From Candidatus Woesebacteria bacterium (lineage in GTDB: Bacteria; Patescibacteriota; Microgenomatia; UBA1400; MFAQ01), in NCBI GenBank assembly GCA_035389185.1, contig DAOORK010000001.1, positions 331,825-395,824 of the forward strand: 64,000 nucleotides of DNA, written 5' to 3'. A model generated the notes under the pieces. That model was not told the origin of the DNA. It searched no databases and saw only the letters and a list, made by a program, of their open reading frames with translations. The position numbers and the translations under genes were made by a program. Shown here piece after piece: positions 1 to 24,649 of the stretch (positions are counted from its first letter, which is position 1; each line of letters starts with the position of its first letter).

Positions 1-476
1 TTGCCTGGATAATACTTGTTAAAACAATTTTTACAACCAAGGAAATAATATTTGAGAGCATTCCCTATCGTGGGGAACTTGTAACATGAAGGTTGGATTT
101 TGCCATCATTGTAAAGAAGTTTGGGAGCAACAGCTCCAAGGACAGGATGTTCTTCGGCAAAATCAAAAAGAAGTTTTAGAGCCGCCCCTTTGATTCTGGT
201 GTCAGGATTTATTTGCAGAATATACTTTCCGTGTGATTCCTTGATAGCCCAGTTCACGGCCTTGGAGAGACCAACGTTTTCAGTATTGACCAAGACTTTT
301 GGCTTTAAAGGATGTTTCCTGGCTAACTCAACACAACGGTCGGCAGGATAGTTGTCGACAACGATTACTTCTTTGTTTAGTCCGTCGCGACTTTTTTGAA
401 TGGAGTCGAGAAAAGGAACAATGGTATCCTCAGATTTGTAACCAACGACGATGATGGAGATATCGATTTCTTTCAT
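1..476 (-). CDS. GT2 family glycosyltransferase (N-terminal part; the 3' end of the gene lies beyond the window start)
   Basis: Manual translation of the minus strand from ATG at 476..474 gives MKEIDISIIVVGYKSEDTIVPFLDSI...VIVVDNYPADRC...ENVGLSKAVNWAIKES, a GT2 Rossmann-like fold with DxD-like motifs. Its start overlaps the stop of the upstream gene (ATGA). The ORF stays open to position 1. Confidence 0.7.
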   Translation of the reverse strand, partial: MKEIDISIIVVGYKSEDTIVPFLDSIQKSRDGLNKEVIVVDNYPADRCVELARKHPLKPKVLVNTENVGLSKAVNWAIKESHGKYILQINPDTRIKGAALKLLFDFAEEHPVLGAVAPKLLYNDGKIQPSCYKFPTIGNALKYYFLGCKNCFNKYYPG

Positions 477-1342
477 ATTGTTTGATTAACTAACGATAGC
501 ACTTCCCTATCTGTTTTAACGAATTTTATTTTTTTATTTTTGATGATAAATCGCCATAGAGCAACCAAAAAAACTTTTAGATAGCCGGGGTGTCTGAGGA
601 TATGGGCAAACAAGAATTGACGATGGGAACGAAGTAAATCCTTGTCAGAGATGTTTACCCAGTTGAAGAGGAGTTCATTTCTTTGTTTTATTAAACTGAG
701 ATATCGAGGGTTTATTTTTTTGGCAGTGGACTCGTGTTCGTGGAAAACGAGAGATTGGTTGTCCCAGATAATTTTGTAACCCATTTTCCAGGCTCGATAA
801 CCAATATCGATGTCTTCCCAATAAAAAGGGGCGTAGATTTCGTTTAGACCGCCGAGTTTGTTCCAGATACTTCGCTTGAAAATAGCGCTACCTCCTGATG
901 CCCAGGCAGAGTAGTATGGCTTTGATTTATCTTCCCCCCTAGTGAACTGGATTTTACCGTCCCATTTTACCTGCGGCCAAGAAGAACTATCTTCATTGAA
1001 AGAAACGGCGAAGACTTTTTCGTCTTTGAAAAAATGAAGAACATCTTTGAGATAACCCTTTTCCGGATGGACATCATTGTTAAGTAGAACTAGATAGTCG
1101 GCAGTTGACACAGCCACACCCTGATTTACCGGTTTGGTGAAACCCAGGTTGGTGTCATTTTTGACTATGACGACTTCGGGATAATTCTCTTTTAGCCAGT
1201 CGATAGTGCCATCGGTGCTACCATTGTCGATAATAATAACTTTATTTAGAAAATCAGAGTTTTTAAATACTTCCGGTAGGTGTTTTTCCAGCAAGTATTT
1301 ACCATTGAAACTGGGAATAATAATATCAATCATTTCGTTCAT
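473..1342 (-). CDS. GT2 family glycosyltransferase
   Basis: 289 aa with IIIPSFNGKYLLEKHL...IIIDNGSTDGT...NLGFTKPVNQG...LLNNDV, typical GT-A/GT2 motifs. Confidence 0.8.
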   Translation of the reverse strand: MNEMIDIIIPSFNGKYLLEKHLPEVFKNSDFLNKVIIIDNGSTDGTIDWLKENYPEVVIVKNDTNLGFTKPVNQGVAVSTADYLVLLNNDVHPEKGYLKDVLHFFKDEKVFAVSFNEDSSSWPQVKWDGKIQFTRGEDKSKPYYSAWASGGSAIFKRSIWNKLGGLNEIYAPFYWEDIDIGYRAWKMGYKIIWDNQSLVFHEHESTAKKINPRYLSLIKQRNELLFNWVNISDKDLLRSHRQFLFAHILRHPGYLKVFLVALWRFIIKNKKIKFVKTDREVLSLVNQTI

Positions 1343-1363
1343 CTTACTTAGTATACCAATGGA

Positions 1364-3163: not shown

Positions 3164-3182
3164 TTGTCTATCTTATCAATTA

Positions 3183-3926
3183 TTACCACTCACGGAAGTT
3201 TCTGGCCAGATAGATCCGGATCCGATTGTATGGGTACTTCAGAACAGTTTTGAAAGCTTTCTTGAGGGGATTCCCTGAACTTGCCTCAATGTTTTTCTCC
3301 CCGAGCTGGAAGTGATTATCGGGAAGTGTTACCATTTGGGAAACGTAGCCATCCATAAAGCCCCATTTTCGACCTAAATCATAAAAAATATCGCCACCGT
3401 TAAAGTTGATTTTTGATTTCATTTTTGGTCCGGCTAGTAAAGAAAAGCCAGTCTTGAAAAGAATATCTTTCATTTGGGATCTGGTCAGGACACTGTAGTG
3501 ATAATGCTCCGTGAGCCACTCTTTGGATGGCATTACCAATACAAGCCAACCATTTTTTACTAAATATTTTCTCCAGTGCATTAAAGCCAAAAAGGGCATA
3601 GTGGAGTGCTCCAAGACATTGCTGGCATAGATAACGTCAAACTTACCTATATCGCCAAGGTCATGCATATCACGAACATAAATCTTGGCACCATATTTGT
3701 CTTTACCTATCTTTGCTTCTTCTTCACTCGCAGTAATACCAACTGCCGTAAATTTGTGTTGATTCAACCAAGCTACCTCATGCCCATCTCCGCAACCGAT
3801 GACGAGAACTTTTTTATTTTTGGGCGGGATTAATTTTAGGAAACAATCCGGCCCTGCCACATTGCTAACAGACAATGGTTCATTTCTTTCTTTTTTGAAC
3901 CATTCATTATATAAAGTACTTTTCAT
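3183..3926 (-). CDS. Class I SAM-dependent methyltransferase
   Basis: 247 aa with a VLVIGCGDGHEVAWL glycine-rich SAM-binding motif and the downstream acidic residue pattern of Methyltransf_11/12. Confidence 0.7.
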   Translation of the reverse strand: MKSTLYNEWFKKERNEPLSVSNVAGPDCFLKLIPPKNKKVLVIGCGDGHEVAWLNQHKFTAVGITASEEEAKIGKDKYGAKIYVRDMHDLGDIGKFDVIYASNVLEHSTMPFLALMHWRKYLVKNGWLVLVMPSKEWLTEHYHYSVLTRSQMKDILFKTGFSLLAGPKMKSKINFNGGDIFYDLGRKWGFMDGYVSQMVTLPDNHFQLGEKNIEASSGNPLKKAFKTVLKYPYNRIRIYLARNFREW

Positions 3927-3930
3927 AGGA

Positions 3931-5463
3931 TTATTTTAGCTTGGGATCAATTTTTTCAATAATGGTGTTCCAGGGTAATGATATTTTTCGAGAAGATGCC
4001 GGAAAATTATTTCTCCAGTTGATTTCACCGCTCATTGTCGTCGGATCGTGTTCGATGATGAGAAAGATCAGATCATGATCCGATTCTTTTTTCTTTGTCC
4101 AAAAAACTGAGTTGTCTTTGATGTATTCCGGAACTCCTGGAAAATATGACATATCACTTGGTTGGTAACCATATTGTTTTGTTCCATACCACCAAAATAA
4201 ATATTGGAATCTTAAATCAAAAACTTGGGGAGTATAGGTATACACTTTGAAAGCACTTCCTGAGGCTTCATGATAAATATTATCAACAACAGTAAGCATG
4301 TTCTTGAGATTGGCCAAATCATTTGAATAACCTTTTTCAACCGACAGATAAGTAACTTTTGTGGAGATTGAGGAGAAAATAGTAAATCCAATAATGAATA
4401 CGGTAAAAAACTTACCCCATGATTTGGCATAAATAATGGTTAGTGCAGAGGCAAAAGCATATATGGAAAATGGTACAAGCCCATATAGATACCAATCTCG
4501 AATGTTAAAGGGAAATATCAGGAAAAATATTAAAAATGCAAAAATAATAAAAAGATTTGTTTTGATAAACTTTGTATTTTCCGAATCACGTTTTCCGAGT
4601 ATTAATGCGAGAGCAATTGTCGCAATAACAAATAACCAAGGAAGTTCGGTGGCTCCGGAAAAAATAGATTTGAAATAGGTAAATCGATTAAGGAGCATGT
4701 CAGATATGGAAAGTTTTTGACCAAGCCAGTCTGTTCCACCAGAGAACTCACCAAGCGTTGATCTGGTCATTAAAAAACCGTGACGAACTTCAAAGACAAT
4801 CTGAGGCAGAAGAGTAACAAAAAAACCTAAAATCAGAGGAATAAGTTGTCTGTCTTTTTTGGATCTTCGGGTATGTAAAAACAAGGAAATGGGGAAAAAT
4901 AAAATTCCGACTGCGGCTTCAACTTGAAGAATAAACCCACATAACAATCCCTCAAGGAATGACGATATTTTTGATTTGTAAAATATAAATAATGGAAGAA
5001 GTGCGGCGAAATAATAGGCTGAATTGGCATTCCAAGAAAATTTTATGGAAAAGGCAGCAATGGGAGAAAATAAAAATAATGAAGCAGAATAAAATGCCAA
5101 AATTTTATTCTTCTTTCTCAAAACAAAATAGATCACAAGAGAAATAATGTGTAAGGTAAGGATCTGGAATCTGACTAGCCATAAAGGATTCCCGCCGGAC
5201 AAGACAAAGGGGATGGAATTAAAATATGCCCAAAAGGGGCCGTAATATAAGCCAATAATATCTGTGGCCGGACCGATGAGGAGAGGTGTTCTGGTGAAGA
5301 TCATACGACGAATTTCGGCCATCTCTCTTGCCTGGTCGTAAGTAAAAGCAATGTCGAAGTCTTTTATTCTCAGGAAACTTAAAACCATCATGGTGATGAA
5401 TAAGACGGCGAAGATCAGGACATCCCAATATTTATTTATGAAATTACGAAACTTTATAAACAT
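3931..5463 (-). CDS. Polytopic membrane protein, putative GT-C-like glycosyltransferase
   Basis: 510 aa with more than 10 predicted TM helices and a C-terminal soluble domain. The glycosyltransferase context supports the call, but no motif was recognised with certainty. Confidence 0.4.
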   Translation of the reverse strand: MFIKFRNFINKYWDVLIFAVLFITMMVLSFLRIKDFDIAFTYDQAREMAEIRRMIFTRTPLLIGPATDIIGLYYGPFWAYFNSIPFVLSGGNPLWLVRFQILTLHIISLVIYFVLRKKNKILAFYSASLFLFSPIAAFSIKFSWNANSAYYFAALLPLFIFYKSKISSFLEGLLCGFILQVEAAVGILFFPISLFLHTRRSKKDRQLIPLILGFFVTLLPQIVFEVRHGFLMTRSTLGEFSGGTDWLGQKLSISDMLLNRFTYFKSIFSGATELPWLFVIATIALALILGKRDSENTKFIKTNLFIIFAFLIFFLIFPFNIRDWYLYGLVPFSIYAFASALTIIYAKSWGKFFTVFIIGFTIFSSISTKVTYLSVEKGYSNDLANLKNMLTVVDNIYHEASGSAFKVYTYTPQVFDLRFQYLFWWYGTKQYGYQPSDMSYFPGVPEYIKDNSVFWTKKKESDHDLIFLIIEHDPTTMSGEINWRNNFPASSRKISLPWNTIIEKIDPKLK

Positions 5464-5464: not shown

Positions 5465-6547
5465 TCAGAGAAGTTTTTTTAGATTCGAAAAGAAGGATTC
5501 GTGTGAGTACAAGTGTGTTCGTTTTGAGGCAGTTGTTTGCATTTTTCGATACAGCTTTTCATCTTCGATGAGGAGTTTTGTTTTGGTAGCAATTTCTTGG
5601 GCGTTGGAGCAAAGGAATCCTGTACCTTCAGCTAGAATTTCTTTTTGACCACCCTTACCTATGACAATTGGGACACAACCAGAAGCCATACTCTCAACAG
5701 TGGTAATACCAAAATGTTCGACCCTTTCGGGATCAGTTTGTTCATCTATTTCAAAACCTGAAGCATGCCAAAAAAAACGTGATTTGGCATACAGACTCTT
5801 TAATTTATCAAAGCGGGGGTCAACGATAAACTTGATTGGCAACGACTTGGCTTTATCTTTAAGTTTTTCCAGTGTATCTGATTGACCATGACTTCCGCCC
5901 GTAAGAAACAGTTGATAGGCGGGAAAACTCTTATGTAAAATTTTAAAAGCATCAATCAAAACATCTTGGCGTTTAGGATGACTGGGTGAATCAAAACGAG
6001 CTACGGATAAAATTATGTTTTCCTTCTTTCCGGGATTGAAACTTTCAACATCGATTGGTGGATACAAAACAAAGCTTTTTTCTTTTGGAAAATGAGTTTC
6101 ATGAACTGCAGCAGTGAACCGTGAGTTGTAAACAAATTTATGAATAAAAAGAGTTTTAATTTTATTGATTAACGGACTACCGCCGATTGTCTTAAAAGGT
6201 ATCTGGAAATGAACTAGATTGTTTTTCGAAAACAAAAAGGGAAGACTGCCGTCACTGACCCAAAAGATAAGTCCGAAACGGACAGTAAACAGGAGTCTCC
6301 TTAACAAAGATGAGTGACCATGGCAGAGATTGTAGGCATTTTTATTTATTTTTAGTTGCGAAAGATCCAAACCAAAGCGTTCTTGTGCGGCAAGAAGAGT
6401 CTTATTGTCGTTCCAGGCTATTTCAACCGAGTAACCTGCAGATATCAGACCAATGGCAAAAGTAAGACAGTAACGTTCCCCACCTCCAAGAGTATCCAGA
6501 TATGGATCAAAAATTAAGGCTTTTTTCATAGTTTTTCTTCTTGCCAT
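5465..6547 (-). CDS. GT4 (GT-B fold, glycosyltransferase group 1) glycosyltransferase
   Basis: 360 aa. The C-terminal EX7E-type motif GFEIDEQTDPERVEHFGITTVESMASGCVPIV is diagnostic of retaining GT4 enzymes. Confidence 0.8.
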   Translation of the reverse strand: MARRKTMKKALIFDPYLDTLGGGERYCLTFAIGLISAGYSVEIAWNDNKTLLAAQERFGLDLSQLKINKNAYNLCHGHSSLLRRLLFTVRFGLIFWVSDGSLPFLFSKNNLVHFQIPFKTIGGSPLINKIKTLFIHKFVYNSRFTAAVHETHFPKEKSFVLYPPIDVESFNPGKKENIILSVARFDSPSHPKRQDVLIDAFKILHKSFPAYQLFLTGGSHGQSDTLEKLKDKAKSLPIKFIVDPRFDKLKSLYAKSRFFWHASGFEIDEQTDPERVEHFGITTVESMASGCVPIVIGKGGQKEILAEGTGFLCSNAQEIATKTKLLIEDEKLYRKMQTTASKRTHLYSHESFFSNLKKLL

Positions 6548-7335
6548 TCTTTCAATAAATCCTTATCAATTTTTTTGTAGGTATCTGAAAGTGATGGTTT
6601 CCTTTGGGCTTCCCACAATCTTTCATAGGTGAGAAATTTACTAAACATTTGATAAATGATCTCAATCCAACCTTCTGTTCCGTCTCTCCATAAACCCTGT
6701 TTTACCGCTCGGTACCAGAACTCTGTGAGCATGATGCGGACGAAACGCCAACCTTTCATTTGGGGGTGACCCGAGTCTAAAAGCATTCTGGCTTCAGACT
6801 TGGACCAGTTCATAGTGTTGGGTACTTTTTCATCAATATTTTTATGCGACAAGTGAACCATCTGATGCCTCAGTTCACCAATTGAACCTTCGATTTTGGG
6901 TTGCTCGTGAAGCTTTCCTTCCCAACGTTTAAGAGCCGTTTTTTTCATCAAACGAAGAACGAGCGGATCGCCCCAGTGAGTTAAGTGTTTGCCCAAGAAA
7001 ATCTCATAACGACTGATCGTGTATGCCTGATGTTGTGGTGTCTCGATTACAGACCTTATCTCGCGGGCAAGTTTAAGAGGAATTCGTTCATCAGAGTCGA
7101 GATACAAAAGCCAGTCACCTTTGGCCTCTTTTGCACCGTCGTTTCTCCACTTGGAAAAACTATCTCCTGTTGAGTGAACAATTTTGGCACCCAATTTGCG
7201 ACAAACTTCGACGGTGTTGTCGGTTGAACCCGAGTCCACCACAATAACTTCATCAGCAAATAAAGAAGTTTTTATGGCAAGTACTATTTCATCGGGAACA
7301 TTTTTGGCAAGAATGATGATCGATATTTTGGGCAT
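6526..7335 (-). CDS. GT2 family glycosyltransferase
   Basis: The listed 344-aa ORF overlaps the upstream gene. The conserved GT2 N-terminus begins at the internal Met (MPKISIIILAKNVPDE...VVDSGSTDNT), ATG at 7335..7333, directly after the neighbour's stop at 7338. The start was adjusted accordingly. Confidence 0.7.
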   Translation of the reverse strand: MPKISIIILAKNVPDEIVLAIKTSLFADEVIVVDSGSTDNTVEVCRKLGAKIVHSTGDSFSKWRNDGAKEAKGDWLLYLDSDERIPLKLAREIRSVIETPQHQAYTISRYEIFLGKHLTHWGDPLVLRLMKKTALKRWEGKLHEQPKIEGSIGELRHQMVHLSHKNIDEKVPNTMNWSKSEARMLLDSGHPQMKGWRFVRIMLTEFWYRAVKQGLWRDGTEGWIEIIYQMFSKFLTYERLWEAQRKPSLSDTYKKIDKDLLKEWQEEKL

Positions 7336-7337: not shown

Positions 7338-8243
7338 TTATTTTATCCAAGATCCTCCTCCTAATTTTCCCACAAAGAAGTCGCGAACAGCTTGTTTTTG
7401 GGCTTTGGTTCCTATAAAAAGCTTTTTGACCGCTTCCCTGAGAAGAGCAATCTTGGTTCGGGGACGGGCATAATCCATACCGAAAAGAAGACGATTGCGA
7501 GTGAGAAAATAATCGTTTAGAGGAGAACCAATACCCGAGCTTTGGGCGACTTTGTGCCAAAGTTTGATGTTTGAATCGACAACAAGTTTATAACCTGCTT
7601 TTTTGATGCGCATACCGAGATCCGAGTCTTCAAAATAGAGACAGTAACGTTCGTCAAAAAGGCCGACTTTTTTGAGAATTTCTGAGCGCACGATAAAAAG
7701 GCAACCGGTGATGAAATCGACCTCTCTCTGACCATCAAATTGACCTTTGTCGACCTCATTGACTCCAAGGTGGTTGGCATAGACGTTGTCCCAGTCGTAC
7801 TGACCTCCAGCGTACCAGATTACCTGCCCAAGTTCGTCTTTTTGATATTTATCTTCAAACTCGAACCCTTTGGCAAAATAAATGAGACCGCCGACAGCAC
7901 CAACATTTTTGTCAGATATTGGTGAGGCCAATATCTTGAGAATCAGGTCTTCCGGAACAACAGTGTCGTTGTTTATCATTACGATGATATCTGTTTCATC
8001 GAGAAGAGCCTTTTTGAACCCTAGATTATTACCGGCAGCAAAACCAACATTGCCGGGACTTTCAACGTATACTGCCTGAGGGTATTTGGAGAGTTTTTCC
8101 CTCAAATCAACCGAGCAGTCGTTGTCCACTACATATACTGTGGAGCTTACCCCCAAGGGTAAGGTGTTTTTTTCAAGCTGCTTCACAACATCGAGAGTGT
8201 CTTGAATACTGTGAAAGCTGACGGTGATAAAACCGATTTTCAT
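7338..8243 (-). CDS. GT2 family glycosyltransferase (rhamnosyltransferase-like)
   Basis: 301 aa with KIGFITVSFHS...VVDNDCS...IVMINNDTVV...CLYFEDSDL motifs of GT2. Confidence 0.75.
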   Translation of the reverse strand: MKIGFITVSFHSIQDTLDVVKQLEKNTLPLGVSSTVYVVDNDCSVDLREKLSKYPQAVYVESPGNVGFAAGNNLGFKKALLDETDIIVMINNDTVVPEDLILKILASPISDKNVGAVGGLIYFAKGFEFEDKYQKDELGQVIWYAGGQYDWDNVYANHLGVNEVDKGQFDGQREVDFITGCLFIVRSEILKKVGLFDERYCLYFEDSDLGMRIKKAGYKLVVDSNIKLWHKVAQSSGIGSPLNDYFLTRNRLLFGMDYARPRTKIALLREAVKKLFIGTKAQKQAVRDFFVGKLGGGSWIK

Positions 8244-17361: not shown

Positions 17362-18875
17362 TATAAAGAGTTTGGCAGGTAGAGGTAAAGTTGAAGTACC
17401 TCCTGAGAACCATCGGTGCGTGCTGGTTTGGGATATTCTTTAACAAGTTGTAAAGCATCCAAAGCTCCAGCGTTAAGATGATTCCGAGATTTATTGACAA
17501 TTAAAAAGCGTTCGTTTTCCGGAGAAGTATTGGCTAGGCCTTCAGGAATGGACCCAACGTAGGGACTTGAACCAACAACGGTGATGTTTTTGTGTCCGTT
17601 GGTGTAAATCTGAATACCGTCGGGAAGAGAACCAAAAAATCCTTCAGTAAAAGCAACTACCTTTTTACCTTGGCTTTCGAGATCGAGGAAATAGATGGCG
17701 ATTTCTTTCTGGCCCCAACCGGCAGTCCATTCTTCGAGATAACCGTTGCGCATGTCGAACGAAAGAGGGGCCCTTTCGGGATTAAATACACAAAAATAAG
17801 AAATGATCACCGGGACGACTAAAAGAATTATTGGGGACAATTTGATAAGAATCCCCTTGCGGCTGATGAGCCAGGACAAACCAAGCCCACAAAGAGGAAT
17901 TAGAGGATAAACAGCAAATAGGGCATATCTGCTTGTATAAACTTTGGCAATGGCGGCTTGACCGATTAGAGGAATCAAGGCAACCAAACAAAGAAAAAGA
18001 CCGGGCAAACGAGTTTTTTTGGGGAAGAAACTGAGAATTATGGCAACTAGGATAGAAGGAGTAAAAAGCAGCCAAAGCCAGTTAGCAGTGGTCTTTAAGT
18101 TACCGATGAGAGGACTAAGGGGATGACCCAGAACCTCTTTCCAGGTGAACAGATAATCTTGATTACGGGCACCAATCATTTCGAAAGCGGGTCCTAAACG
18201 AAGAATGGCATACATTGCTTGAGAGATAATTATGGCGGCCAGAAGACCGAGGGTTAAACTACCAAGATCACGAAGTTTGAGTTGCTTGAAAGGTGTAAAG
18301 CACAAGATGGAGACAACCAACCAGACATAGAAAAAGATGGCTGGTGACTTGGTGAGCATTCCACCCCCAAGTGCAAATCCAAGTAGCATAGCGTAATCCA
18401 ACCGACGGGTTTTGGCAAAGAAAATGGAGAAAACGAGAGACCAGACTCCAAACATGGCCAGAAGAGAGTCGGCAAGGGCCATCCGATCAAAAAAGACAGT
18501 ATAAGGCAAGGCTGAGTAAACAAGAGCTGTCAAAGCGGCAACAAGAACGTTACCAAAAAGTAGAAAGGCCAGAAGGGCAATACCTACAAGTGATCCAAAG
18601 CCGGCAACAACAGAAACCAAACGTCCGGCAACCAATGGATCAGAACTTATCTTAAAGAAAGGAACTGTGGCCCACATAAAAAACGGCTGTTTGCCATCAG
18701 TTTGGGGAATAAAACGAAGATTTGGTTCATTTTTGATGATTTGAGACCAGCGAACATAAATTGCTTCATCGACAAAAACGGGAATTTTGTTGAGTTGGGA
18801 GAGACGAAAGAAAAAGAAAGCAAAGATGGCAAGAAGAAAAATAGCGATTGTCAGTAATTTCTTATTTTTGGTCAT
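17361..18875 (-). CDS. GT-C fold membrane glycosyltransferase (GT39/GT83, PMT/ArnT-like)
   Basis: 504 aa. The motif FFFRLSQLNKIPVFVDEAIYVRW holds the DE motif in the first extracytoplasmic loop. Multiple TM helices follow. Confidence 0.65.
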   Translation of the reverse strand: MTKNKKLLTIAIFLLAIFAFFFFRLSQLNKIPVFVDEAIYVRWSQIIKNEPNLRFIPQTDGKQPFFMWATVPFFKISSDPLVAGRLVSVVAGFGSLVGIALLAFLLFGNVLVAALTALVYSALPYTVFFDRMALADSLLAMFGVWSLVFSIFFAKTRRLDYAMLLGFALGGGMLTKSPAIFFYVWLVVSILCFTPFKQLKLRDLGSLTLGLLAAIIISQAMYAILRLGPAFEMIGARNQDYLFTWKEVLGHPLSPLIGNLKTTANWLWLLFTPSILVAIILSFFPKKTRLPGLFLCLVALIPLIGQAAIAKVYTSRYALFAVYPLIPLCGLGLSWLISRKGILIKLSPIILLVVPVIISYFCVFNPERAPLSFDMRNGYLEEWTAGWGQKEIAIYFLDLESQGKKVVAFTEGFFGSLPDGIQIYTNGHKNITVVGSSPYVGSIPEGLANTSPENERFLIVNKSRNHLNAGALDALQLVKEYPKPARTDGSQEVLQLYLYLPNSL

Positions 18876-19623
18876 ACAATCCTTTGATGTCGTTTAATTT
18901 TACCTGGAGGATCTGCTTTAACATGTCCGTTGATTCCTTGATGAAGCGTTTATTCTTGTTGGTGGAGATATCTTCATCTTTCCAGGAAACATCGACCTCT
19001 TTTAGCTTGTAGCCATATTTTTCAGCAAGGAAGAGCAGTTCAACATCAAAAGCGGAGACGGTCCAACCCTTTGATTCTTTTTCTTCCTTTAAAACGGACA
19101 GTTTGGGGAAAATTTCTTTGGCCACTTTGGTTTTGAAAGACTTAAAACCACATTGAGTATCAGTGACATCACGAAGAAGGAAAAAACCTCTAATAAAACG
19201 GAAGCCCCAGGAGGTCAACTGGCGGTACCAAGGGAAGTTTTTTCTGGCTCGGCCACGAGAACCAAAAACGACATCAAAGCCTTCATCAAACCAAGGAAGA
19301 AGTTTTTCGACCTCTTTTAGGGGTGTGGATTGATCCATGTCTGCAAAAAGAACAATGTCGCCTTTGGCGGCCTTAATACCAGCCCAGACAGCTTTAGCTT
19401 TCCCCCCATGAAGGTTGGGCAGAACACGAAATCCCGAGTGACTGCGAGCATATTTTTCGGCATCTTCTCGACTACCATCGGTGGAACCGTCATCGCTGAT
19501 AAGCACTTCCCAAGCGTAGTCGGTTTTGTGGAGATAATGATTAACCTGATCCAGAACTCCCCTATCTAGGTTTTCTTTTTCGTTGAAGTTGGGAATAACG
19601 ATTGATAGTTTTGGATTGGCCAT
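18862..19623 (-). CDS. Polyprenol-phosphate glycosyltransferase (GT2; Dpm1/GtrB/ArnC-like)
   Basis: 253 aa with LSIVIPNFNEKENL...LISDDGSTDGS...LFADMDQSTP, typical of dolichol/undecaprenol-phosphate mannose or glucose synthases. Confidence 0.75.
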   Translation of the reverse strand: MANPKLSIVIPNFNEKENLDRGVLDQVNHYLHKTDYAWEVLISDDGSTDGSREDAEKYARSHSGFRVLPNLHGGKAKAVWAGIKAAKGDIVLFADMDQSTPLKEVEKLLPWFDEGFDVVFGSRGRARKNFPWYRQLTSWGFRFIRGFFLLRDVTDTQCGFKSFKTKVAKEIFPKLSVLKEEKESKGWTVSAFDVELLFLAEKYGYKLKEVDVSWKDEDISTNKNKRFIKESTDMLKQILQVKLNDIKGLYDQK

Positions 19624-19626: not shown

Positions 19627-20163
19627 TTATTTGAAGACGGTGTCTCTGTAATATTTTAACTCATCGATTGATTCCAAAATATCATCGTGAGCCCGATGAG
19701 GTTCAACTTTAGAAAAAGGTTTGTTGTGAGGATACCAACGACCAGCAAGCTCTTTAATGGTAGAGACGTCAATAATACGATAGTGAACAAAATCAGCCAG
19801 CTTGGGCATCTGAATCCTAAGGAATTCCCGATCGATGTGGATAGAGTTGCCGGCAAAAAGAGCCGTGTTTTTGGGACAGTGTTTTTTGAGAAAAGAAAGA
19901 GTTTTTTCTTCTGCTTCGTCTGTGGATATTTTTGATTCATGAATTTCATTGAGAAGACCCGACTCGGCAAAATGTTCCTGGCACCAATCGTTAATTTTGT
20001 TCATCACTGAAGCCGGATGATGAATAACGATGTCTGGACCTTCGGCAACAACGTTTAGTTCGGCGTCGGAAATAATAGTCGCAATTTCAACAATTTTATC
20101 TTTTTCTGGATCAAGACCGGTCATCTCTAGATCAAGCCAGATGAGTTTACCGTTGGTAATCAT
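19627..20163 (-). CDS. orn: Oligoribonuclease (3'-5' exoribonuclease, DEDDh family)
   Basis: LIWLDLEMTGLDPEKDKIVEIA...HRAHDDILESIDELKYYR matches the Orn N-terminus and the DEDDh catalytic motifs. The start was moved to the internal Met (MITNGKLIW), consistent with Orn N-termini and with the upstream gene's stop at 20160. Confidence 0.85.
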   Translation of the reverse strand: MITNGKLIWLDLEMTGLDPEKDKIVEIATIISDAELNVVAEGPDIVIHHPASVMNKINDWCQEHFAESGLLNEIHESKISTDEAEEKTLSFLKKHCPKNTALFAGNSIHIDREFLRIQMPKLADFVHYRIIDVSTIKELAGRWYPHNKPFSKVEPHRAHDDILESIDELKYYRDTVFK

Positions 20164-21644
20164 TTGGAGTGAGCTAGTTGGTAGATTTTTAGATAATCGA
20201 TACTCCACTCGGAAACAATGTGTGATGGACCAAAGACCGCAATTTGCCATCCGGGGTTACCTTCAGGTTGGCATTTATCCCCATCTTCGCAGATTACAAA
20301 AAGCCAGTCGGTAATTCTCTCTTCCCCCCTAATGAGGTTGGCTTTTTTGTTTTCTAAGAAGTAACGATACGACTCGTCATAGTTTTGTTTGGCAATAAGA
20401 CCAAAATTGAAGGGCTCCCCTTTTGATTCTTTGATAATCAAGTCCGCAGCGGCTTCTGTACGTTGAAGCTGTCGATTGGGTTGGCCAAAGGTAGGACTAT
20501 ATCTTAAATTGACAAATAATAGGGCCAAAACAGTAAGAAGGGCTACGACTTTTAAGACAAAGCCTTTTCTGGAAAGGAAATAGCCGATTAGGGCACCGAG
20601 CAAAAGATACACTGCCGGGTAGATAAAGCCAAGGTAGTGAACATAAACATGCTGTTTGTAGATACTTAACCCAAAAATTCCGAAAGCAAGCCAGATATAA
20701 AGAAGCTTTAACTGGGGGCGCCATTTTGACTTGAAAAATATAAAAACGGACAATAAAAGAATTGCCACTGAGATAAGGGGAACACTAATATTCTGACGAG
20801 CCAGAACGAGATCGGTAACGGTGGTAATAATGACCGGAACAAAACGATCTGACTTGGTGGGATTGAGATTAACAGTGGTTTGACGATCGGTGAAGAATTT
20901 TTCGAAAGCGTGGAAATTCATACCTTGATGTTTGATATCAAAAAGAACAAGCGGTGACATAAGTACTAAAAACAAAGCAATGGCTAATAGGGTATTCTTG
21001 ACGAAATGTGAACGAAGAGTTTTGTCTTTTCTTATCCGGAGGAGAGAAATGAGCCAGAAAAAACCTAAAGTGGGAGCTAAAAGCAGACCGAGATAATGCA
21101 TTTGCAAAGCAAAGGCAAAAGAAACACCAACAATAGGCAACCAAAAATATTTTTTATTTTGCCAGACCTGATAGACTCCCCAAATACAAAGAAGGGCAAA
21201 AAGAGGCATAGGGTTGGGATTCCAAGAAGAGCGTGAATAAATTATGGCAACCGGAGAAACGGAGAATAAAGCCGCCGCAACCAAACCGGCACTTTTGTTG
21301 AACCAAGATCTACCAACAAACCAGGTAAGGCCGACGGTAAGAACTCCCAGTAGGGCAACCATAATAGCCGGACCGACTGGATTAAGATTAGACAAAAATA
21401 ACGCCGGGGCCATCATGTAGTAATAAAGCGGACCCAAGTACATGTTGCCAATACTAGTTTGAGGTCCGATGAAAACTAAGTTGCCTCTGGTAATAAGGTC
21501 ACGAACAATACGAACGTCGCGCCCTTCATCTCCCAAGAAAGTCATGAACTCACCAATGCGATATAGGCGCAAAAATAAGGCTAGACCAAGAATACCAATT
21601 AATATAAAGAACTCTAGACGATTTTTTTTGATCCAGTTGATCAT
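20160..21644 (-). CDS. GT-C fold membrane glycosyltransferase (GT39/GT83-like)
   Basis: 494 aa with the N-terminal loop FMTFLGDEGRDVRIVRDL (DE motif) and more than 10 TM helices. Confidence 0.65.
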   Translation of the reverse strand: MINWIKKNRLEFFILIGILGLALFLRLYRIGEFMTFLGDEGRDVRIVRDLITRGNLVFIGPQTSIGNMYLGPLYYYMMAPALFLSNLNPVGPAIMVALLGVLTVGLTWFVGRSWFNKSAGLVAAALFSVSPVAIIYSRSSWNPNPMPLFALLCIWGVYQVWQNKKYFWLPIVGVSFAFALQMHYLGLLLAPTLGFFWLISLLRIRKDKTLRSHFVKNTLLAIALFLVLMSPLVLFDIKHQGMNFHAFEKFFTDRQTTVNLNPTKSDRFVPVIITTVTDLVLARQNISVPLISVAILLLSVFIFFKSKWRPQLKLLYIWLAFGIFGLSIYKQHVYVHYLGFIYPAVYLLLGALIGYFLSRKGFVLKVVALLTVLALLFVNLRYSPTFGQPNRQLQRTEAAADLIIKESKGEPFNFGLIAKQNYDESYRYFLENKKANLIRGEERITDWLFVICEDGDKCQPEGNPGWQIAVFGPSHIVSEWSIDYLKIYQLAHSK

Positions 21645-22357
21645 TTGATTTTTAACCTGAGTCGGCCAAGGTCAATGAAACTTTGGATAATAACGTTTAG
21701 TTTGGCCCCAGTGGCCTCACCAAATTTACGAGGATAGTGATGAACTCCAATTTCAACAATCTTAAAACCTGCTTTTTTGGCTTTTATCAGAAACTCGGAA
21801 CTGATGAAAGCACCTCGCTCACTTTCCAAGTGAGGGATGGTGTCGACAACTTTTTTGGAAATTAGTTTGAAACCGCAGTCGATGTCCCGAACATTAAGAC
21901 CAAAAAGCAACCAGACAAAAAACTGCCAAATCTTTGAGTTCATTTTGCGAGTGAGATGTACTTTGCGGTCAAGGTAAAAACCAATAACCATGTCCGCACC
22001 GGTCTTTTTCTGGGTGTTTAGAAAATCAGTAATGTCTTTAAAGTTGAACTGACCGTCGGAGTCAATAAAAGAAATCCAGGGATATTTACAACCATAAAGA
22101 CCGCTTTTGAATGCGCCCCCATATCCCCGATTGGGATGGTGATGAATTACAGAGATACGTTTGTCTGCCTTGGCTAGTTTGTTGGCAATTTTGCCAGTGT
22201 TATCTTTGGAACCATCGTCGACAATAACGACTTCCCAAGTAGAGATATTTTTTTGGAGATTTTCAACTACGTTTTTGACCGTCCGCTCGAGATTGGCCTC
22301 CTCGTTGTATGCCGGCAAAAATACGGAGAGTTTATCTATTTGTCTCGCCATAATCAC
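21641..22357 (-). CDS. Polyprenol-phosphate glycosyltransferase (GT2; Dpm1/GtrB-like)
   Basis: 238 aa with LSVFLPAYNEEANL...VVIVDDGSKDNT...SFIDSDGQF motifs. Confidence 0.75.
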   Translation of the reverse strand: MIMARQIDKLSVFLPAYNEEANLERTVKNVVENLQKNISTWEVVIVDDGSKDNTGKIANKLAKADKRISVIHHHPNRGYGGAFKSGLYGCKYPWISFIDSDGQFNFKDITDFLNTQKKTGADMVIGFYLDRKVHLTRKMNSKIWQFFVWLLFGLNVRDIDCGFKLISKKVVDTIPHLESERGAFISSEFLIKAKKAGFKIVEIGVHHYPRKFGEATGAKLNVIIQSFIDLGRLRLKIK

Positions 22358-22377: not shown

Positions 22378-23493
22378 ATGAAACGAGTTTATTTAGGCAT
22401 TGCCGTATTACTATTTTCCTTACTGGTTTGGTTACCTTTTGTTCTTAAGGTCAAATTGCCAGCCTGGGGTTTGGATTTTTCCGAAGGCACGAAAATTTTG
22501 TGGCAAAACTATGACGGACCAAATTATCTAATTGTGGCAAAAACTTGGTACAACAAAGCAGATATTCTTAACAAATTTTCAAATCCTCTGCCAGCGGAGT
22601 ATTATCCAGCTCACTTTCCTTTGTATCCGGCGATTATCTCGGTTTTTGATCAGTTCTTAAAAGGCCCAACGGCAATGTTGCTAAGCAGTCTTTTAGGTAC
22701 AGTCCTTTTGTATATCGTATTTTTCCGATATCTAACCCATTTTAAATTGAGTAAAAATCCACTTTGGGCATGTTTGGTCTTTTTGATATTACCTGCCAGA
22801 TGGATTGCTGTTCGTAGTGTTGGTTCTCCTGAACCATGGTTTTTACTTTTTGTAGTCACCAGTATCTTTTTTTTCCGTAAGGAAAAATACTGGATGGCAG
22901 GACTGTTTGGGTTGCTTGCTCAACTGACAAAAAGTCCGGCAATTATTTTATTGGGTGCGTACGGCATTTATGCCTTGGTGGAGTCGATCAAAAGCAAAAA
23001 AATTCAGTTTAAATACTGGCCATTGTTGATCCAAGCATTAGCCATTCCAGCCTTGTTCTGGTTTTATGGGATGCAGACCGGGGATTTTTGGGCATATTTC
23101 CACAGTGGTGACAATATTCATCTTTTTTGGCCTCCCTTTTCCGTGTTTACACCTTTGGGACAGCATTGGGTAAATAGTTTTTGGCTTGAAGATGTGATTT
23201 GGACTTGGTTAATTTTTGGCTTAGGAATATTAAAGCTTTGGGGGAAAAAGGCCAAAGTGGAGACATATTTTGCCGGATTATTTTTTCTATCCACTCTCTT
23301 TGTAGCTCATAGAGACATCAGTCGTTATATTCTTCCCATTGCCCCTTTTGTTTTGATTGGTTGGGACAACCTTATCCAAAAGAAAGAGTTCAAAATTATG
23401 TTGGGAATTCTTCTTATTCCAGTTATCTTGTATAGCTGGAACTTCATATTAAACAATATGGCTCCGGTAGCTGACTGGACACCGTACCTCTAA
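22378..23493 (+). CDS. Polytopic membrane protein (putative GtrC/GT-C-like glycan transferase)
   Basis: 371 aa with about 10 TM helices and no soluble domain. It is convergent with, and adjacent to, the GtrA-GtrB fusion gene. Confidence 0.35.
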   Translation: MKRVYLGIAVLLFSLLVWLPFVLKVKLPAWGLDFSEGTKILWQNYDGPNYLIVAKTWYNKADILNKFSNPLPAEYYPAHFPLYPAIISVFDQFLKGPTAMLLSSLLGTVLLYIVFFRYLTHFKLSKNPLWACLVFLILPARWIAVRSVGSPEPWFLLFVVTSIFFFRKEKYWMAGLFGLLAQLTKSPAIILLGAYGIYALVESIKSKKIQFKYWPLLIQALAIPALFWFYGMQTGDFWAYFHSGDNIHLFWPPFSVFTPLGQHWVNSFWLEDVIWTWLIFGLGILKLWGKKAKVETYFAGLFFLSTLFVAHRDISRYILPIAPFVLIGWDNLIQKKEFKIMLGILLIPVILYSWNFILNNMAPVADWTPYL

Positions 23494-23494
23494 T

Positions 23495-24649
23495 TTATTT
23501 TTTCTTTTTCCAGATGATGAGGTTGTACATCAACCAGTTGTAAGGCAGAACCAAGAAAACGATGATAAAGGGGAGCAACAGTTGACGATTGAGATGGGTG
23601 AGAGAGACAAGACCGGCGCCGGAAATTGTTTGGATAAGTAAGGCTCCGACAGAAGTAAGGTTGAACTGAAGAAATTTATTGATAGTAGCAATGACTCCGT
23701 GAATCTTGTCTGATTTGAAAGTCCAGAGATTGTTCCAGGTAAAGTTACTGATGATGGCCAGCTCGGTGCTTAAGAGCCAACTGAGCCATTCATTGTGTGT
23801 AAGATTGCTAAAAACGGCTAAGCCGATGGCATTAACAAGGTAACCGATAAAACCAACAGTACCAAACTTAACGAACTTTTGGGTACCTGGATCGTTCCAA
23901 CGAAGAAGGAAAACTGAACGAAAAATATCTTTGGCTGTTTTGGATTCGATTTTGGACTCACCTTTGGTACGAAGACCAAACTGTAGAGGAATTTCTTTGA
24001 CTTTGGCTCCAAGAGTAACCATTTTATAGAGGAACTCAAGTTTGTAACCAAAACTTCGGGAATAAAGATGGTCCATGTCCATGGTGTCCACAAAGCCCTT
24101 AACACGAGAGGCCTTGAGACCGGTTGTGGGATCTGTAATTTTGAAGAACATTTTTGTCGGAAAGAAAAGAACAAAACGGGCGACTAAACCACCAACTTCA
24201 CTAAAAAAGATGCGTTTGAAACCCCAACCCTTGGGGTTTGATCCCCCATCGATTTTTCGAGAACCCAAAACATAGTCATACCCTTTGGAGATTTCTTTTA
24301 ACAATACCGGTATGTCTTTGGGGGGATGTTGAAAGTCGGCATCAAATTCAATGATGACATCTGCCCCGAGAACTTTCATGGCGTGACGGAAACCTTTTAC
24401 ATAAGCACCACCGATACCGGCTTTGGTAGGATTAAGATAAAGATTGAGGTTTGGATACTCTTTTTGTTTTTTCTGAACAATTTTGTAGGTACCGTCGGGG
24501 GAGGTGTCATCAACAACAAGAAGTTTGCACTGCCAGTCGATTATCTTGGGAAATATTTTTCCACATAGAGTGTCGATCATCTTGCCAATGGTACCGGCTT
24601 CGTTGTAGGTCGGGATGACAACAACGGCAACAGGGAGTTTCTTCATCAT
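23495..24649 (-). CDS. Polyprenol-phosphate glycosyltransferase fused to a C-terminal GtrA-like membrane domain
   Basis: 384 aa. The N-terminal GT2 domain (VVVIPTYNEAGTI...LVVDDTSPDGT) is followed by four TM helices (KFVKFGTVGFIGYLVNAIGLAVF...), typical of the GtrA family. Confidence 0.7.
   Translation of the reverse strand: MMKKLPVAVVVIPTYNEAGTIGKMIDTLCGKIFPKIIDWQCKLLVVDDTSPDGTYKIVQKKQKEYPNLNLYLNPTKAGIGGAYVKGFRHAMKVLGADVIIEFDADFQHPPKDIPVLLKEISKGYDYVLGSRKIDGGSNPKGWGFKRIFFSEVGGLVARFVLFFPTKMFFKITDPTTGLKASRVKGFVDTMDMDHLYSRSFGYKLEFLYKMVTLGAKVKEIPLQFGLRTKGESKIESKTAKDIFRSVFLLRWNDPGTQKFVKFGTVGFIGYLVNAIGLAVFSNLTHNEWLSWLLSTELAIISNFTWNNLWTFKSDKIHGVIATINKFLQFNLTSVGALLIQTISGAGLVSLTHLNRQLLLPFIIVFLVLPYNWLMYNLIIWKKKK

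Follow-up and report, generated by a model that had tools for sequence, protein, structure and literature searches.

A GT-C-rich glycosylation island and its probable role in cell-surface glycan synthesis in a Candidatus Woesebacteria genome

Introduction

In the described three-component systems, GtrA/GtrB/GtrC of Shigella and Salmonella, CsbB/GtcA/YfhO and GacI-L of Gram-positives, and the GT136 pentofuranose systems, one polyprenyl-phosphate-sugar synthase, one flippase and one GT-C glycosyltransferase add a single side-chain sugar, and an analogy with mycobacteria has been drawn (PMC11127046). The assembly of mycobacterial arabinogalactan and lipoarabinomannan (Emb, Aft, Mpt, PimE) employs many GT-Cs and very few polyprenyl-monophosphate donors, decaprenyl-P-arabinose or polyprenyl-P-mannose, and its product is a branched envelope glycan outside the membrane. 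Here we describe an island of such genes in a metagenome-assembled genome of Candidatus Woesebacteria, an ultra-small uncultivated bacterium (Microgenomates, Patescibacteria/CPR) known from metagenomes only. One cluster of at least 16 extracytoplasmic sugar transferases takes up about 5% of the roughly 0.9 Mb genome; related species keep the cluster, and it probably makes a complex cell-surface glycan.

Results

We analyzed positions 1-24649 of the window, the whole stretch of 64,000 nucleotides, by ORF listing and by Pfam and NCBIfam profile searches (Table 1). An earlier note on this DNA had described a glycosylation island beginning at position 1. Its observation of the locus stands but covers about half of it: in the same genome the island carries on for at least 20 kb beyond the left window edge, which cuts it, and 1-24649 is its right-hand half. 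The part left of the window holds eight further GT-C genes, a second Wzx-like gene, a fourth Dpm1-like GT2, one GT4, two GT2s and a B12-radical SAM gene. As lower bounds, the whole island spans at least 44.7 kb and contains at least 16 GT-C, at least 11 GT2, 2 GT4 and 2 Wzx-like genes. Such a density of GT-C genes is unusual compared with bacteria in general, as the note had remarked; within Microgenomates it is the rule: 47 loci from other species carry a median of 7 GT-C-like genes per ∼22 kb.

Table 1. Genes of positions 1-24649 and their right-hand neighbors, with profile matches (bits) and sequence features.
Position	Strand	Product	Length (aa)	Evidence and remarks
1..476	-	soluble GT2	272	cut by window start, N-terminal 158 aa inside (frame translation); complete gene L003 10867-11685; Pfam Glycos_transf_2
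473..1342	-	soluble GT2	289	PF00535 69; weak sub-threshold match to rhamnosyltransferase TIGR01556
1364..3163	-	GT-C (PMT_2), MecA_N/NTF2-like domain at C-terminus	599	PF13231 47.3 (cutoff 26.1); PF05223 22.0, aa 396-497; about 9 TM segments
3183..3926	-	SAM-dependent methyltransferase	247	Methyltransf_23/11/12/25
3931..5463	-	GT-C-like polytopic protein	510	no match in Pfam search; about 9 TM segments; YDQ replaces DE
5465..6547	-	GT4 (GT-B fold) glycosyltransferase	360	PF00534 78
6526..7335	-	soluble GT2	269	PF00535 66.6; length from public gene call; 82-85% identity to orthologues
7338..8243	-	soluble GT2, rhamnosyltransferase-like	301	PF13641, PF00535; TIGR01556 63, sub-threshold
8312..9862	+	GT-C (PMT_2/PMT), member of 8-copy ArnT-like array family	516	PF13231 35.2; PF02366 29.4; motif YYDEID
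10089..11006	-	GT2, helical extension at C-terminus	305	PF00535 64.7
11006..14200	-	fusion protein	1064	signal anchor
14193..15668	-	Wzx/MOP-family flippase	491	PF13440 (Polysacc_synt_3) 176; NF007773 MOP flippase 127, sub-threshold
15649..17361	-	GT-C (PMT_2)	570	PF13231 33.5; about 10 TM segments; HDD after TM1
17361..18875	-	GT-C (PMT_2/PMT)	504	PF13231 50.9; PF02366 26.9; motif VDEAIY
18862..19623	-	Dpm1/GtrB/ArnC-like GT2, putative polyprenyl-phosphate sugar synthase	253	PF00535 104; best NCBIfam matches ArnC, PgfS, dolichyl-P-hexose transferase, all sub-threshold
19627..20163	-	oligoribonuclease (Orn)	178	NF003765 239.6 (cutoff 106); RNase_T
20160..21644	-	GT-C (PMT_2/PMT)	494	PF13231 49.8; PF02366 32.3; motif LGDEGRD
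21641..22351	-	Dpm1/GtrB/ArnC-like GT2	236	PF00535 122; ArnC, dolichyl-P-hexose transferase, PpgS, AglJ, all sub-threshold
22378..23493	+	small GT-C, Gpi18/PIG-V/PimE-like	371	no match in Pfam search; NF046093 'cell surface glycopolymer formation' 51, sub-threshold
23495..24649	-	Dpm1/GtrB-like GT2 fused to GtrA-type membrane domain	384	PF00535 89.9; PF04138 GtrA_DPMS_TM 55.6 (cutoff 26.1)
24646..24897	-	zf-CDGSH protein	83	precomputed PF09360; first gene, right-hand edge of minus-strand run
28437..31991	-	rmlD, rmlC, rmlB, rmlA (dTDP-L-rhamnose synthesis)		3.5 kb from island; rmlA_long TIGR01208 342.7 (cutoff 320.25); dTDP_sugar_isom, Epimerase/GDP_Man_Dehyd, RmlD_sub_bind

All island genes in 1-24649 are intact, and their packing is operon-like, with same-strand neighbors overlapping or separated by fewer than 25 nt. 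Pseudogenes and chance reading frames were ruled out, as orthologues of equal length occur in the same order in other species at 60-85% identity; the GT2 genes in particular are conserved and not degraded. The long ORF starts at 7560, 14296, 15677, 20250 and 22357 were over-called, the public gene calls being 7335 (for the 269-aa GT2), 14200, 15668, 20163 and 22351.

Besides Wzx, eight polytopic proteins are encoded in 1-24649, each with 4-12 hydrophobic segments in a crude Kyte-Doolittle scan. All eight are GT-C-type glycosyltransferases, in agreement with the approximate number given before. Five of them (599, 516, 570, 504 and 494 aa) exceed the gathering threshold of PMT_2. The 510-aa protein joins them by homology to the PMT_2 region of its 494-aa paralogue (BLASTP E 5e-12, 218 aa), its hhalign match to the array family being weak (probability 13%), and the 1064-aa and 371-aa proteins join by AlphaFold and Foldseek. 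Profile and structure searches do not place the polytopic proteins among transporters or unrelated families. The first outer loop contains acidic residues in each of the eight. The exact DE motif after TM1, previously ascribed to four ORFs, is found in the 516-, 504- and 494-aa proteins, while the 599-aa protein has D-A-E / D-G-E instead. The 516-aa enzyme shares 26-32% identity with seven paralogues left of the window, and the profile of this array family matches ArnT (5ezm) at E 7e-4, the only solved structure matched by sequence. The AlphaFold model of the 371-aa protein (pLDDT 85.8) is a GT-C fold: the 34 best Foldseek matches have this fold without exception and include STT3 (4e-4), ArnT (6.5e-4, TMq 0.58), PglB, ALG12, GPI-MT-I and PimE, and also PIG-U, a non-catalytic subunit of GPI transamidase. 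Residues N44, D46 and G47 are invariant.

The three Dpm1/GtrB-like GT2s, one of them fused to GtrA, were recovered as described. Against models of polyprenyl-P-sugar synthases they score only below the curated cutoffs, and the hydrophobic-segment scan shows no TM helix in two of the three. The 253-aa gene runs 14 nt into the 504-aa GT-C gene that follows it, and the 236-aa gene runs 4 nt into the 494-aa one. Of 65 Dpm1-like genes, 59 are followed directly (within 60 nt) by a GT-C gene. Sixteen GT-C enzymes stand against one recognizable GtrA domain in the island.

The Wzx-like flippase, also recognized by the note, is encoded by a gene that runs 8 nt into the 1064-aa gene, and in every one of the 47 loci from other species the gene directly after Wzx is a homologue of the 1064-aa gene. 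The 1064-aa protein is unannotated, with no match in Pfam and NCBIfam searches, and its sequence does not match STT3 models. In its AlphaFold model (pLDDT 88.7), residues ∼25-480 form a DUF3863-like (beta/alpha)7 glycoside hydrolase/deacetylase-fold domain with a beta-sandwich, residues ∼495-925 a GT-C membrane domain, and residues ∼930-1064 an AglB-like globular domain at the C-terminus. Foldseek matches include 3lm3 (5e-13), STT3 (1e-7), DPY19 (2e-7), AglB (4e-7) and AftA (6e-6); the membrane parts of this and the 371-aa model find structural matches to GT-C enzymes only. G553, H557, D558 and H562 are among the invariant residues, and the motifs WWDYG and DXD of true oligosaccharyltransferases were looked for and are absent. 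As modeled, the protein is a hydrolase/deacetylase-like domain fused to an STT3/AglB-like GT-C without WWDYG.

The soluble GT2s number five rather than the six counted before, next to the one GT4 and the SAM methyltransferase that had been expected; 24 of 31 related loci have the 305-aa GT2, the fifth of the soluble ones, after a full-length 1064-aa gene. The gene at 19627-20163 was rejected as a glycosylation gene on its oligoribonuclease match: it is a housekeeping gene inside the operon, outside the glycosylation chemistry, and has the same position in relatives. The rmlABCD genes adjoin the island and likely supply it with sugar; the Wzx-dependent oligosaccharide therefore probably contains rhamnose. 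No phosphoglycosyltransferase (Bac_transf or MraY/WecA-type) was seen in the ∼108 kb annotated neighborhood, nor any Wzy/WaaL-type polymerase or ligase, LCP ligase or chain-length regulator, and the Wzx export route is therefore incomplete as encoded here.

Comparative genomics, proposed in the note, revealed that the core gene order is kept in Collier-, Woese-, Shapiro- and Daviesbacteria at 30-85% identity. Across distant Microgenomates, the Wzx-1064-GT2-GT2-GT2-GT4 block and the Dpm1-GT-C pairs stay adjacent and co-oriented, which argues for one pathway. The tight coupling of Dpm1/GtrB-like genes to GT-C genes, and of Wzx to the 1064-aa gene, strengthens the earlier suggestion of elaborate extracytoplasmic glycosylation.

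Discussion

We think it probable that the locus is an envelope-glycan island with two routes, in which a Wzx-exported lipid-linked oligosaccharide is elaborated by GT-Cs using polyprenyl-phosphate sugars. In the first route, the soluble GT2s and the GT4 would assemble the oligosaccharide, possibly methylated, at the cytoplasmic face with polyprenyl diphosphate as its carrier, and Wzx would flip it to the outer face. There the 1064-aa enzyme may use it by en bloc transfer or polymerization, its hydrolase/deacetylase-like domain perhaps binding or trimming glycan or acceptor. In the second, the three Dpm1/GtrB-like GT2s (four in the whole island) would produce polyprenyl-monophosphate sugars, and the GtrA-type domain, perhaps with other small membrane proteins, would carry them across the membrane. 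The ArnT/PMT-like and PIG-V/PimE-like GT-Cs would then each attach one sugar to a specific site on the exported glycan or acceptor, with a small set of donors feeding many transferases, as when mycobacteria make arabinan and mannan. The enzyme families and folds, the intact genes, their operon-like packing and their conserved order and coupling are direct observations; we infer the donors, the sequence of reactions, what the 1064-aa protein does and the acceptor, which may be a secondary wall polymer, a lipoglycan or a surface protein. Several observations speak against this reading: no initiating phosphoglycosyltransferase, polymerase or ligase was seen in the ∼108 kb of neighborhood, the Dpm1-like GT2s stay below the synthase cutoffs, a single GtrA domain accompanies 16 GT-C enzymes, and the 1064-aa protein is without WWDYG and DXD.

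It is unlikely that the island serves mainly protein O-glycosylation, with each PMT/ArnT-like GT-C adding single sugars from polyprenyl-P-sugars to Ser/Thr of secreted or sortase-anchored proteins (pilins, S-layer, adhesins), as in actinobacterial Ppm1/Pmt, and the STT3-like 1064-aa enzyme placing the Wzx-flipped oligosaccharide on protein. The Pfam PMT and PMT_2 matches would fit such a role, but a Pfam search found no MIR/TPR acceptor-binding domains of true protein O-mannosyltransferases, and the only solved-structure match of the array family by sequence, ArnT, is a lipid-modifying enzyme. Likewise, the 1064-aa protein is closest in structure to protein oligosaccharyltransferases (STT3B, PglB and AglB, the last also in its C-terminal domain), yet it lacks the WWDYG Ser/Thr pocket motif. 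We know of no precedent for sixteen different transferases devoted to single-sugar protein modification. Candidate acceptors lie about 9-12 kb off, where a sortase, an LPATG-ending 865-aa surface protein and a 309-aa protein are encoded, the latter two with 23-24% Ser+Thr, but these genes are outside the conserved island. Sortase itself, a further point in favor of this role, is near-ubiquitous in Microgenomates (PMC6744442).

Least probable, and in our view quite doubtful, is that the Wzx module and the GT-C array are independent pathways that only share a location, the array acting not on the Wzx-exported unit but on a membrane glycolipid or lipoglycan (LM/LAM-like or lipoteichoic-acid-like) or on peptidoglycan itself. 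In favor of this, the 371-aa and a 355-aa protein are similar to the glycolipid-modifying PimE and GPI mannosyltransferases, the solved structure nearest to the array family is that of ArnT, the 599-aa GT-C has a PBP2a-type NTF2 domain, and the PGT, polymerase and ligase of a classical Wzx/Wzy route were not found nearby. The conserved adjacency of Wzx block and Dpm1-GT-C pairs speaks against separate pathways, and the island showed no genes for lipid-anchor synthesis.

Returning to the two-route reading, the pairing of a Dpm1/ArnC-like synthase with a PMT_2-type GT-C bearing the loop-1 DE motif recalls actinobacterial Ppm1/Pmt and ArnC/ArnT. The island differs from both in its massive paralogue expansion and from Ppm1/Pmt in that its GT-Cs have no MIR domain; unlike the target of ArnC/ArnT, the CPR envelope is Gram-positive-like and without lipid A (PMC6744442). 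The 1064-aa protein shares with STT3/AglB/PglB a multi-TM GT-C domain, a C-terminal globular unit and genetic coupling to a lipid-linked oligosaccharide flippase. Because it departs from them in motifs, in sequence match and in its extra N-terminal DUF3863-type domain, its acceptor is probably not an N-X-S/T sequon. As in the three-component systems, a GT2 synthase, a small flippase (here the GtrA domain) and a GT-C are encoded together, with the GT-C gene directly after the synthase gene; here, however, 3-4 synthases would serve at least 16 GT-Cs.

The mycobacterial system is likewise comparable in its many GT-Cs and few donors, and AftA, EmbC and PimE are among the structural matches of island proteins. 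DPPR synthase and DprE-type genes were not seen in the island, and its array enzymes are ArnT/PMT_2-like by sequence, unlike Emb/Aft. The genome of Mycobacterium tuberculosis has about 16 GT-C genes, a number similar to that of the island. The mycobacterial genes are scattered over a 4.4 Mb genome, whereas those described here are co-oriented at one site of a ∼0.9 Mb genome, with a Wzx module integrated among them.

Gene content of the island

Open reading frame listing and Pfam searches confirmed a glycosylation island at window positions 1-24649, with nearly every gene named in the earlier note recovered and minor corrections to the counts. The one GT4, the Wzx-like flippase and the SAM methyltransferase claimed for these 24.6 kb are all detected by Pfam, as are the three polyprenol-phosphate sugar synthase-like GT2s, one of them fused to GtrA, whose NCBIfam matches are sub-threshold; of six soluble GT2s announced, five were found. 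The genes are packed with overlaps or gaps of less than 25 nt, and the minus strand carries all but two of those in the window part of the island. At its right-hand edge the minus-strand run opens with the zf-CDGSH gene, beyond which lies a divergent trmD. Intact reading frames with the lengths of their orthologues rule out pseudogenes.

An oligoribonuclease (Orn) gene, which is not a glycosylation gene, sits within the operon between a GT-C gene and a Dpm1-like GT2 gene, and its position is kept in Collierbacteria and Woesebacteria relatives.

The GC content stays at ∼40% along the window, the island being neither set off by a compositional break nor marked by an anomaly pointing to recent horizontal transfer. 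The Rfam search recovered one tRNA, located outside the island, and no other family, and the region contains no tandem repeats, so that there is no sign of a mobile element or riboswitch. Promoter-like sites (44 vs 37.6 expected from shuffled sequence) and terminator-like sites (27 vs 17.1) were near expectation and were left unused. The GC skew is positive over the first 60 kb and falls to about zero and then slightly below it at 60000-64000, which may mark a replication-related switch or merely a change in gene orientation.

Features of the island and of the neighbouring genes in the window
Feature	Position	Strand	Motif after TM1	Remarks
Soluble GT2	1-476	-		cut by window start
Soluble GT2	473-1342	-		Pfam
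GT-C, 599 aa	1364-3163		D-A-E / D-G-E	
SAM methyltransferase	3183-3926	-		Pfam
GT-C-like, 510 aa	3931-5463		DQ	
GT4	5465-6547	-		Pfam
Soluble GT2	6526-7335	-		Pfam
Soluble GT2	7338-8243	-		Pfam
GT-C, 516 aa	8312-9862		DE (exact)	array family
Soluble GT2, 305 aa	10089-11006	-		Pfam
GT-C-like, 1064 aa	11006-14200		GHDAIFH	N-terminal outside domain
Wzx/MOP flippase	14193-15668	-		Polysacc_synt_3 (PF13440), 176 bits
GT-C, 570 aa	15649-17361		DD	
GT-C, 504 aa	17361-18875		DE (exact)	
Dpm1/GtrB-like GT2	18862-19623	-		Pfam GT2, 90-122 bits across the three
Oligoribonuclease (Orn)	19627-20163	-		above NCBIfam cutoff
GT-C, 494 aa	20160-21644		DE (exact)	
Dpm1/GtrB-like GT2	21641-22351	-		Pfam GT2
GT-C-like, 371 aa	22378-23493		YDG	
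Dpm1/GtrB-like GT2, 384 aa	23495-24649	-		Pfam GT2; fused GtrA domain (PF04138), 55.6 bits vs 26.1 cutoff
zf-CDGSH (iron-sulfur) protein, 83 aa	24646-24897	-		4-nt overlap with start of GtrA-fused GT2
dTDP-L-rhamnose operon	28437-31991	-		rmlD, rmlC, rmlB, long-form rmlA; 3.5 kb from island
Sortase	33187-33762	-		next to two surface proteins
S/T-rich protein, 309 aa	33770-34699	-		Ser-rich stalk
SpaA-like (SpaA_4) protein, 865 aa	34696-37293	-		LPATG, TM helix and basic tail at end
FtsE, FtsX and PcsB-like coiled-coil protein	40996-43803	-		Peptidase_C39_2 domain in the PcsB-like protein

GT-C assignment of the polytopic proteins

All eight polytopic proteins, described earlier as GT-C-like, proved to be GT-C or GT-C-like by Pfam, BLASTP, or AlphaFold and Foldseek. 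A hydropathy scan detects 7-12 segments in seven of them and four or more for the 371-aa protein, and every one carries an acidic residue after TM1. The loop DE motif reported for four proteins is exact in three and takes the form D-x-E in the fourth, of 599 aa. Residues D36/E37, D46 and D558 are invariant, each within its own family alignment. Five proteins (599, 516, 570, 504 and 494 aa) exceed the Pfam PMT_2 gathering score, and in the 516-, 504- and 494-aa proteins PF02366, PF13231 and DE all occur, as in the PMT/PMT_2 N-terminal module. Pfam finds no MIR (beta-trefoil) domain in any of the eight, and for this reason they are not filed as eukaryote-type PMTs. NCBI names some members of these families 'glycosyltransferase family 39 protein'.

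Searches against the PDB with single sequences (phmmer; 1064-, 371- and 494-aa proteins) returned noise only, and searches with profiles were informative for two families, not for that of the 371-aa protein. The profile of the array family, a subfamily comprising the 516-aa protein and seven copies left of the window, matches ArnT (5ezm) as the only solved structure (E 7e-4, ∼160 residues). The 510-aa protein has no Pfam match and aligns by BLASTP over 218 residues (E 5e-12) to the PMT_2 region of the 494-aa paralogue; as its hhalign match to the array family is weak (probability 13%), its GT-C assignment rests on one homology plus topology. The family of the 371-aa protein reaches an hhalign probability of 0.8% against the array family, and neither comparison is strong enough to connect the subfamilies by sequence. 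The AlphaFold model of the 371-aa protein, built from 36 homologues, has ∼11 long helices (pLDDT 85.8, pTM 0.88), and its best 34 Foldseek matches are all of the GT-C fold (TMq 0.5-0.58), among them ArnT (TMq 0.58), STT3, PglB, ALG12, GPI mannosyltransferase I, ALG9, PimE and PIG-U, a non-catalytic GPI-transamidase subunit. A transporter identity is ruled out: in Foldseek searches with the 1064- and 371-aa models transporters appear at probability <0.25 and TM-score <0.2, and for the 371-aa model at probability ≤0.1 only.

At its C-terminus the 599-aa protein carries an NTF2-like domain (residues 396-497; PF05223, 22.0 bits, at the cutoff). Domains of this type form the N-terminus of PBP2a/MecA, a possible pointer to peptidoglycan-associated acceptors.

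Extent of the island beyond the window

The island continues left of window position 1, as seen in the same DNA in GCA_029561095.1 (contig JAKQJP010000175.1). The co-oriented run proceeds from the rest of a 272-aa GT2 to GT-C proteins of 497, 569, 553, 544, 567, 553 and 547 aa, all with the DE motif. Further left, a GT2 (292 aa) and another GT4 (342 aa) precede a 355-aa protein paralogous to the 371-aa GT-C. Next come a second, weaker Wzx-like protein (425 aa, Polysacc_synt_3), the fourth Dpm1-like GT2 of the island (265 aa), one more GT2 (334 aa) and a B12-binding radical SAM gene. From window position 24897 (record 181,304) to record 225,983 the island measures at least 44.7 kb, a lower bound since the DNA covered ends within the radical SAM gene, and corresponds to ∼4.9% of a 905,580-bp contig, the longest on which the 1064-aa protein is seen. 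It holds at least 16 GT-C, 11 GT2, 2 GT4 and 2 Wzx-like genes. Pairwise identities within the array family are 21-34%, which points to an old tandem expansion and not to recent duplication.

Within the tandem GT-C array, two short ORFs encode polytopic proteins of 228 and 180 aa (13209-13895 and 17245-17787 of L003, a stretch of the same genome left of the window). They overlap their neighbours, have no Pfam match, and may serve as accessory subunits or flip the lipid-linked donors. The radical SAM gene (21091-21704 of L106, another such stretch), located after the last GT2, may serve in sugar modification, such as C-methylation.

Conservation across Microgenomates

In a relative of 65% identity, gene order is the same from the 371-aa gene to the 305-aa GT2 and differs further on, for example by a YfhO gene. 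For a broader comparison we used 47 loci from other species, each ≥20 kb long and taken around a homologue of the 1064-aa gene. Each of the 47 has one Wzx gene, and a GT4, 3-5 GT2s and 1-3 Dpm1-like GT2s occur in nearly all; GT-C-like ORFs number 2-10 per locus (median 7). The conserved order is 371 < Dpm1-like > 494 > (Orn) > Dpm1-like > 504 > 570 > Wzx > 1064 > GT2 > GT2 > GT2 > GT4, and the counterpart of window positions 1-10000 and beyond varies more than this core. The homologue of the 1064-aa gene directly follows Wzx in all 47 loci, mostly with an overlap of 4-8 nt. A GT-C gene lies within 60 nt after a Dpm1-like gene in 59 of 65 cases in the related loci, and the pairs in the window overlap. 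ORFs of these loci with no match among the window proteins include further GT-C families (YfhO, GT87/PIG-U-like, ALG6/8-like and PMT_2). The high density of GT-C genes, which the earlier note had called unusual, is thus real, but its recurrence in other species makes it a trait of the lineage rather than something particular to one genome. The proposed elaborate surface glycosylation system gains support, and is extended both in size and in phylogenetic breadth.

Two other genes were seen among the glycosylation genes of related islands: one for a SIR2_2-domain protein, a type often linked to defence (6414-7508 of locus L097), and one for a DHH/DHHA1 phosphoesterase (13981-15033 of locus L046).

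The 1064-aa protein

The 1096-codon ORF at 11006-14296 yields a protein of 1064 aa when the start is set at M33. The ORF product is 100% identical to PLI45_01980, a hypothetical protein of a Candidatus Woesebacteria bacterium, which places the source among uncultivated Microgenomates (Patescibacteria/CPR). It has no match in Pfam or NCBIfam. Its AlphaFold model, based on 38 homologues (pLDDT 88.7, pTM 0.85), consists of four parts, which include a signal anchor and an outside-facing domain (aa ∼25-480), and a multi-TM region is combined with a C-terminal globular unit as in STT3/AglB/PglB. The structure nearest to the outside domain is the uncharacterised 3lm3, followed more distantly by NodB deacetylases, ArnD and GH57/GH38 barrels. 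We find no invariant histidine in residues 1-480 of the family alignment, which makes a classical metal-dependent CE4 site improbable. A reading of the domain as a CE4 deacetylase is unsupported on both counts.

STT3 oligosaccharyltransferases combine an N-terminal multi-TM region, bearing two DXD motifs, with a C-terminal globular CC unit and the WWDYG motif (PMC3703281). After residue 480 the 1064-aa protein contains no WW, W-x-D or WD-x-G and no D-x-D. In place of WWDYG, the family of this protein conserves the block PKPLYAYxSTAYISALSGQ...INLDITG, and its invariant acidic residues are single (D558, D594, E671 and D785). True membership of STT3/PglB is therefore rejected; the protein is STT3/AglB-like by architecture and stands outside that family.

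The family comprises 2,535 clusters at 50% identity (E ≤ 1e-3, counting matches to a single half) and 1,333 at E ≤ 1e-30. The two halves of the protein also occur as separate proteins, and every named member among the matches listed is 'hypothetical'. Relatives were found in 413 stretches of a species-level genome collection, and among the best 80 of these records the credible lineages are Collier-, Woese-, Shapiro- and Daviesbacteria or 'Microgenomates/Patescibacteria'. Many public MAG records titled 'uncultured Pseudomonadales' or 'uncultured Gammaproteobacteria' (loci L028, L032, L033, L037-L042 and others) carry a Microgenomates-type locus at ≤65% identity, as do single 'Spirochaetia' and 'Clostridia' records; such titles look like placeholders or misclassifications.

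A model of the pathway

The families and folds of the enzymes, the integrity and close packing of the genes and their conserved coupling are observed; the function of the island we infer from sequence and modelled structures, taking as pathway model the three-component GtrB/flippase/GT-C systems and mycobacterial arabinan synthesis (PMC11127046). By analogy, the Dpm1-like enzymes would make polyprenyl-phosphate sugars; in NCBIfam they come closest to ArnC, PgfS, PpgS, AglJ and dolichyl-P-hexose transferase, all with scores far under the curated cutoffs. GtrA, perhaps together with the small membrane ORFs, would flip these donors. The GT-C enzymes would then use them at the outer face of the membrane, each adding one sugar, a step that the placing of GT-C genes directly after Dpm1-like genes supports by context. 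With 3-4 synthases against at least 16 GT-C proteins, most of the transferases must differ by acceptor or linkage and not by donor. The complete rml operon, together with two GT2s resembling rhamnosyltransferases below threshold, suggests that the glycan contains rhamnose.

The block Wzx-1064-GT2-GT2-GT2-GT4 resembles a small unit that depends on Wzx. Neither a Wzy polymerase nor a WaaL-type ligase (Wzy_C) was detected in the window or in the island beyond it, and the 1064-aa GT-C would be the one conserved candidate for this step. The ∼108 kb annotated neighbourhood holds no initiating phosphoglycosyltransferase of the Bac_transf or Glycos_transf_4 families, and no LCP ligase or chain-length regulator, which counts against the model. 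Since no Wzy/WaaL/PglL-type enzyme is found, the 1064-aa protein, with its invariable translational coupling to Wzx and its oligosaccharyltransferase-like architecture, is the best candidate user of the Wzx-flipped lipid-linked oligosaccharide, a role we consider almost as probable as not.

Possible acceptors are two sortase-adjacent surface proteins, the LPATG-anchored SpaA-like protein and the 309-aa protein, both with a Ser+Thr content of 23-24%. These putative targets are encoded outside the conserved island. The neighbourhood also contains FtsE and FtsX genes adjoining the PcsB-like gene, a division hydrolase module of the Gram-positive type.

Discussion

CPR/Patescibacteria, whose genomes are minimal, are believed to live attached to other cells. 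To our knowledge, their surface chemistry is almost wholly undescribed. The island is a striking lead for this surface biology, resting wholly on sequence and predicted structure. The Dpm1-GT-C pairs and the 1064-aa STT3-like fusion family provide concrete genes, the latter as a candidate new class of lipid-linked-oligosaccharide transferase.

[quoted passage not shown] Glycans go unmentioned in a 2024 review of the biology of Patescibacteria. We found no description of the island in the open-access literature searched, although absence there is no proof of being unknown. What appears undescribed is the size of the GT-C super-island together with its conservation in Microgenomates, the coupling of synthase with GT-C and of Wzx with the 1064-aa gene, and the STT3-like fusion family; all component enzyme families are already known.

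A more far-reaching joint reading, though rather unlikely, runs as follows. The 1064-aa protein would found a new Microgenomates-wide STT3/AglB-like GT-C family and stand in for Wzy/WaaL/PglB as user of the Wzx-flipped lipid-linked oligosaccharide, its fused hydrolase/deacetylase-like domain coupling transfer to glycan or wall processing, and with ∼15 further GT-C enzymes it would build the main wall-associated heteropolysaccharide entirely outside the membrane.

Mycobacterium tuberculosis has about as many GT-C enzymes as this island. Such a number, gathered in one conserved island that occupies ∼5% of the genome, suggests that an elaborate extracytoplasmic glycan is probably central to the biology of these bacteria, through roles such as maintaining the envelope, attaching to hosts or evading phages and predators. 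Should the joint reading be true, a mycobacterium-style pathway would operate in a 0.9 Mb genome, likely mediating host attachment and phage recognition.
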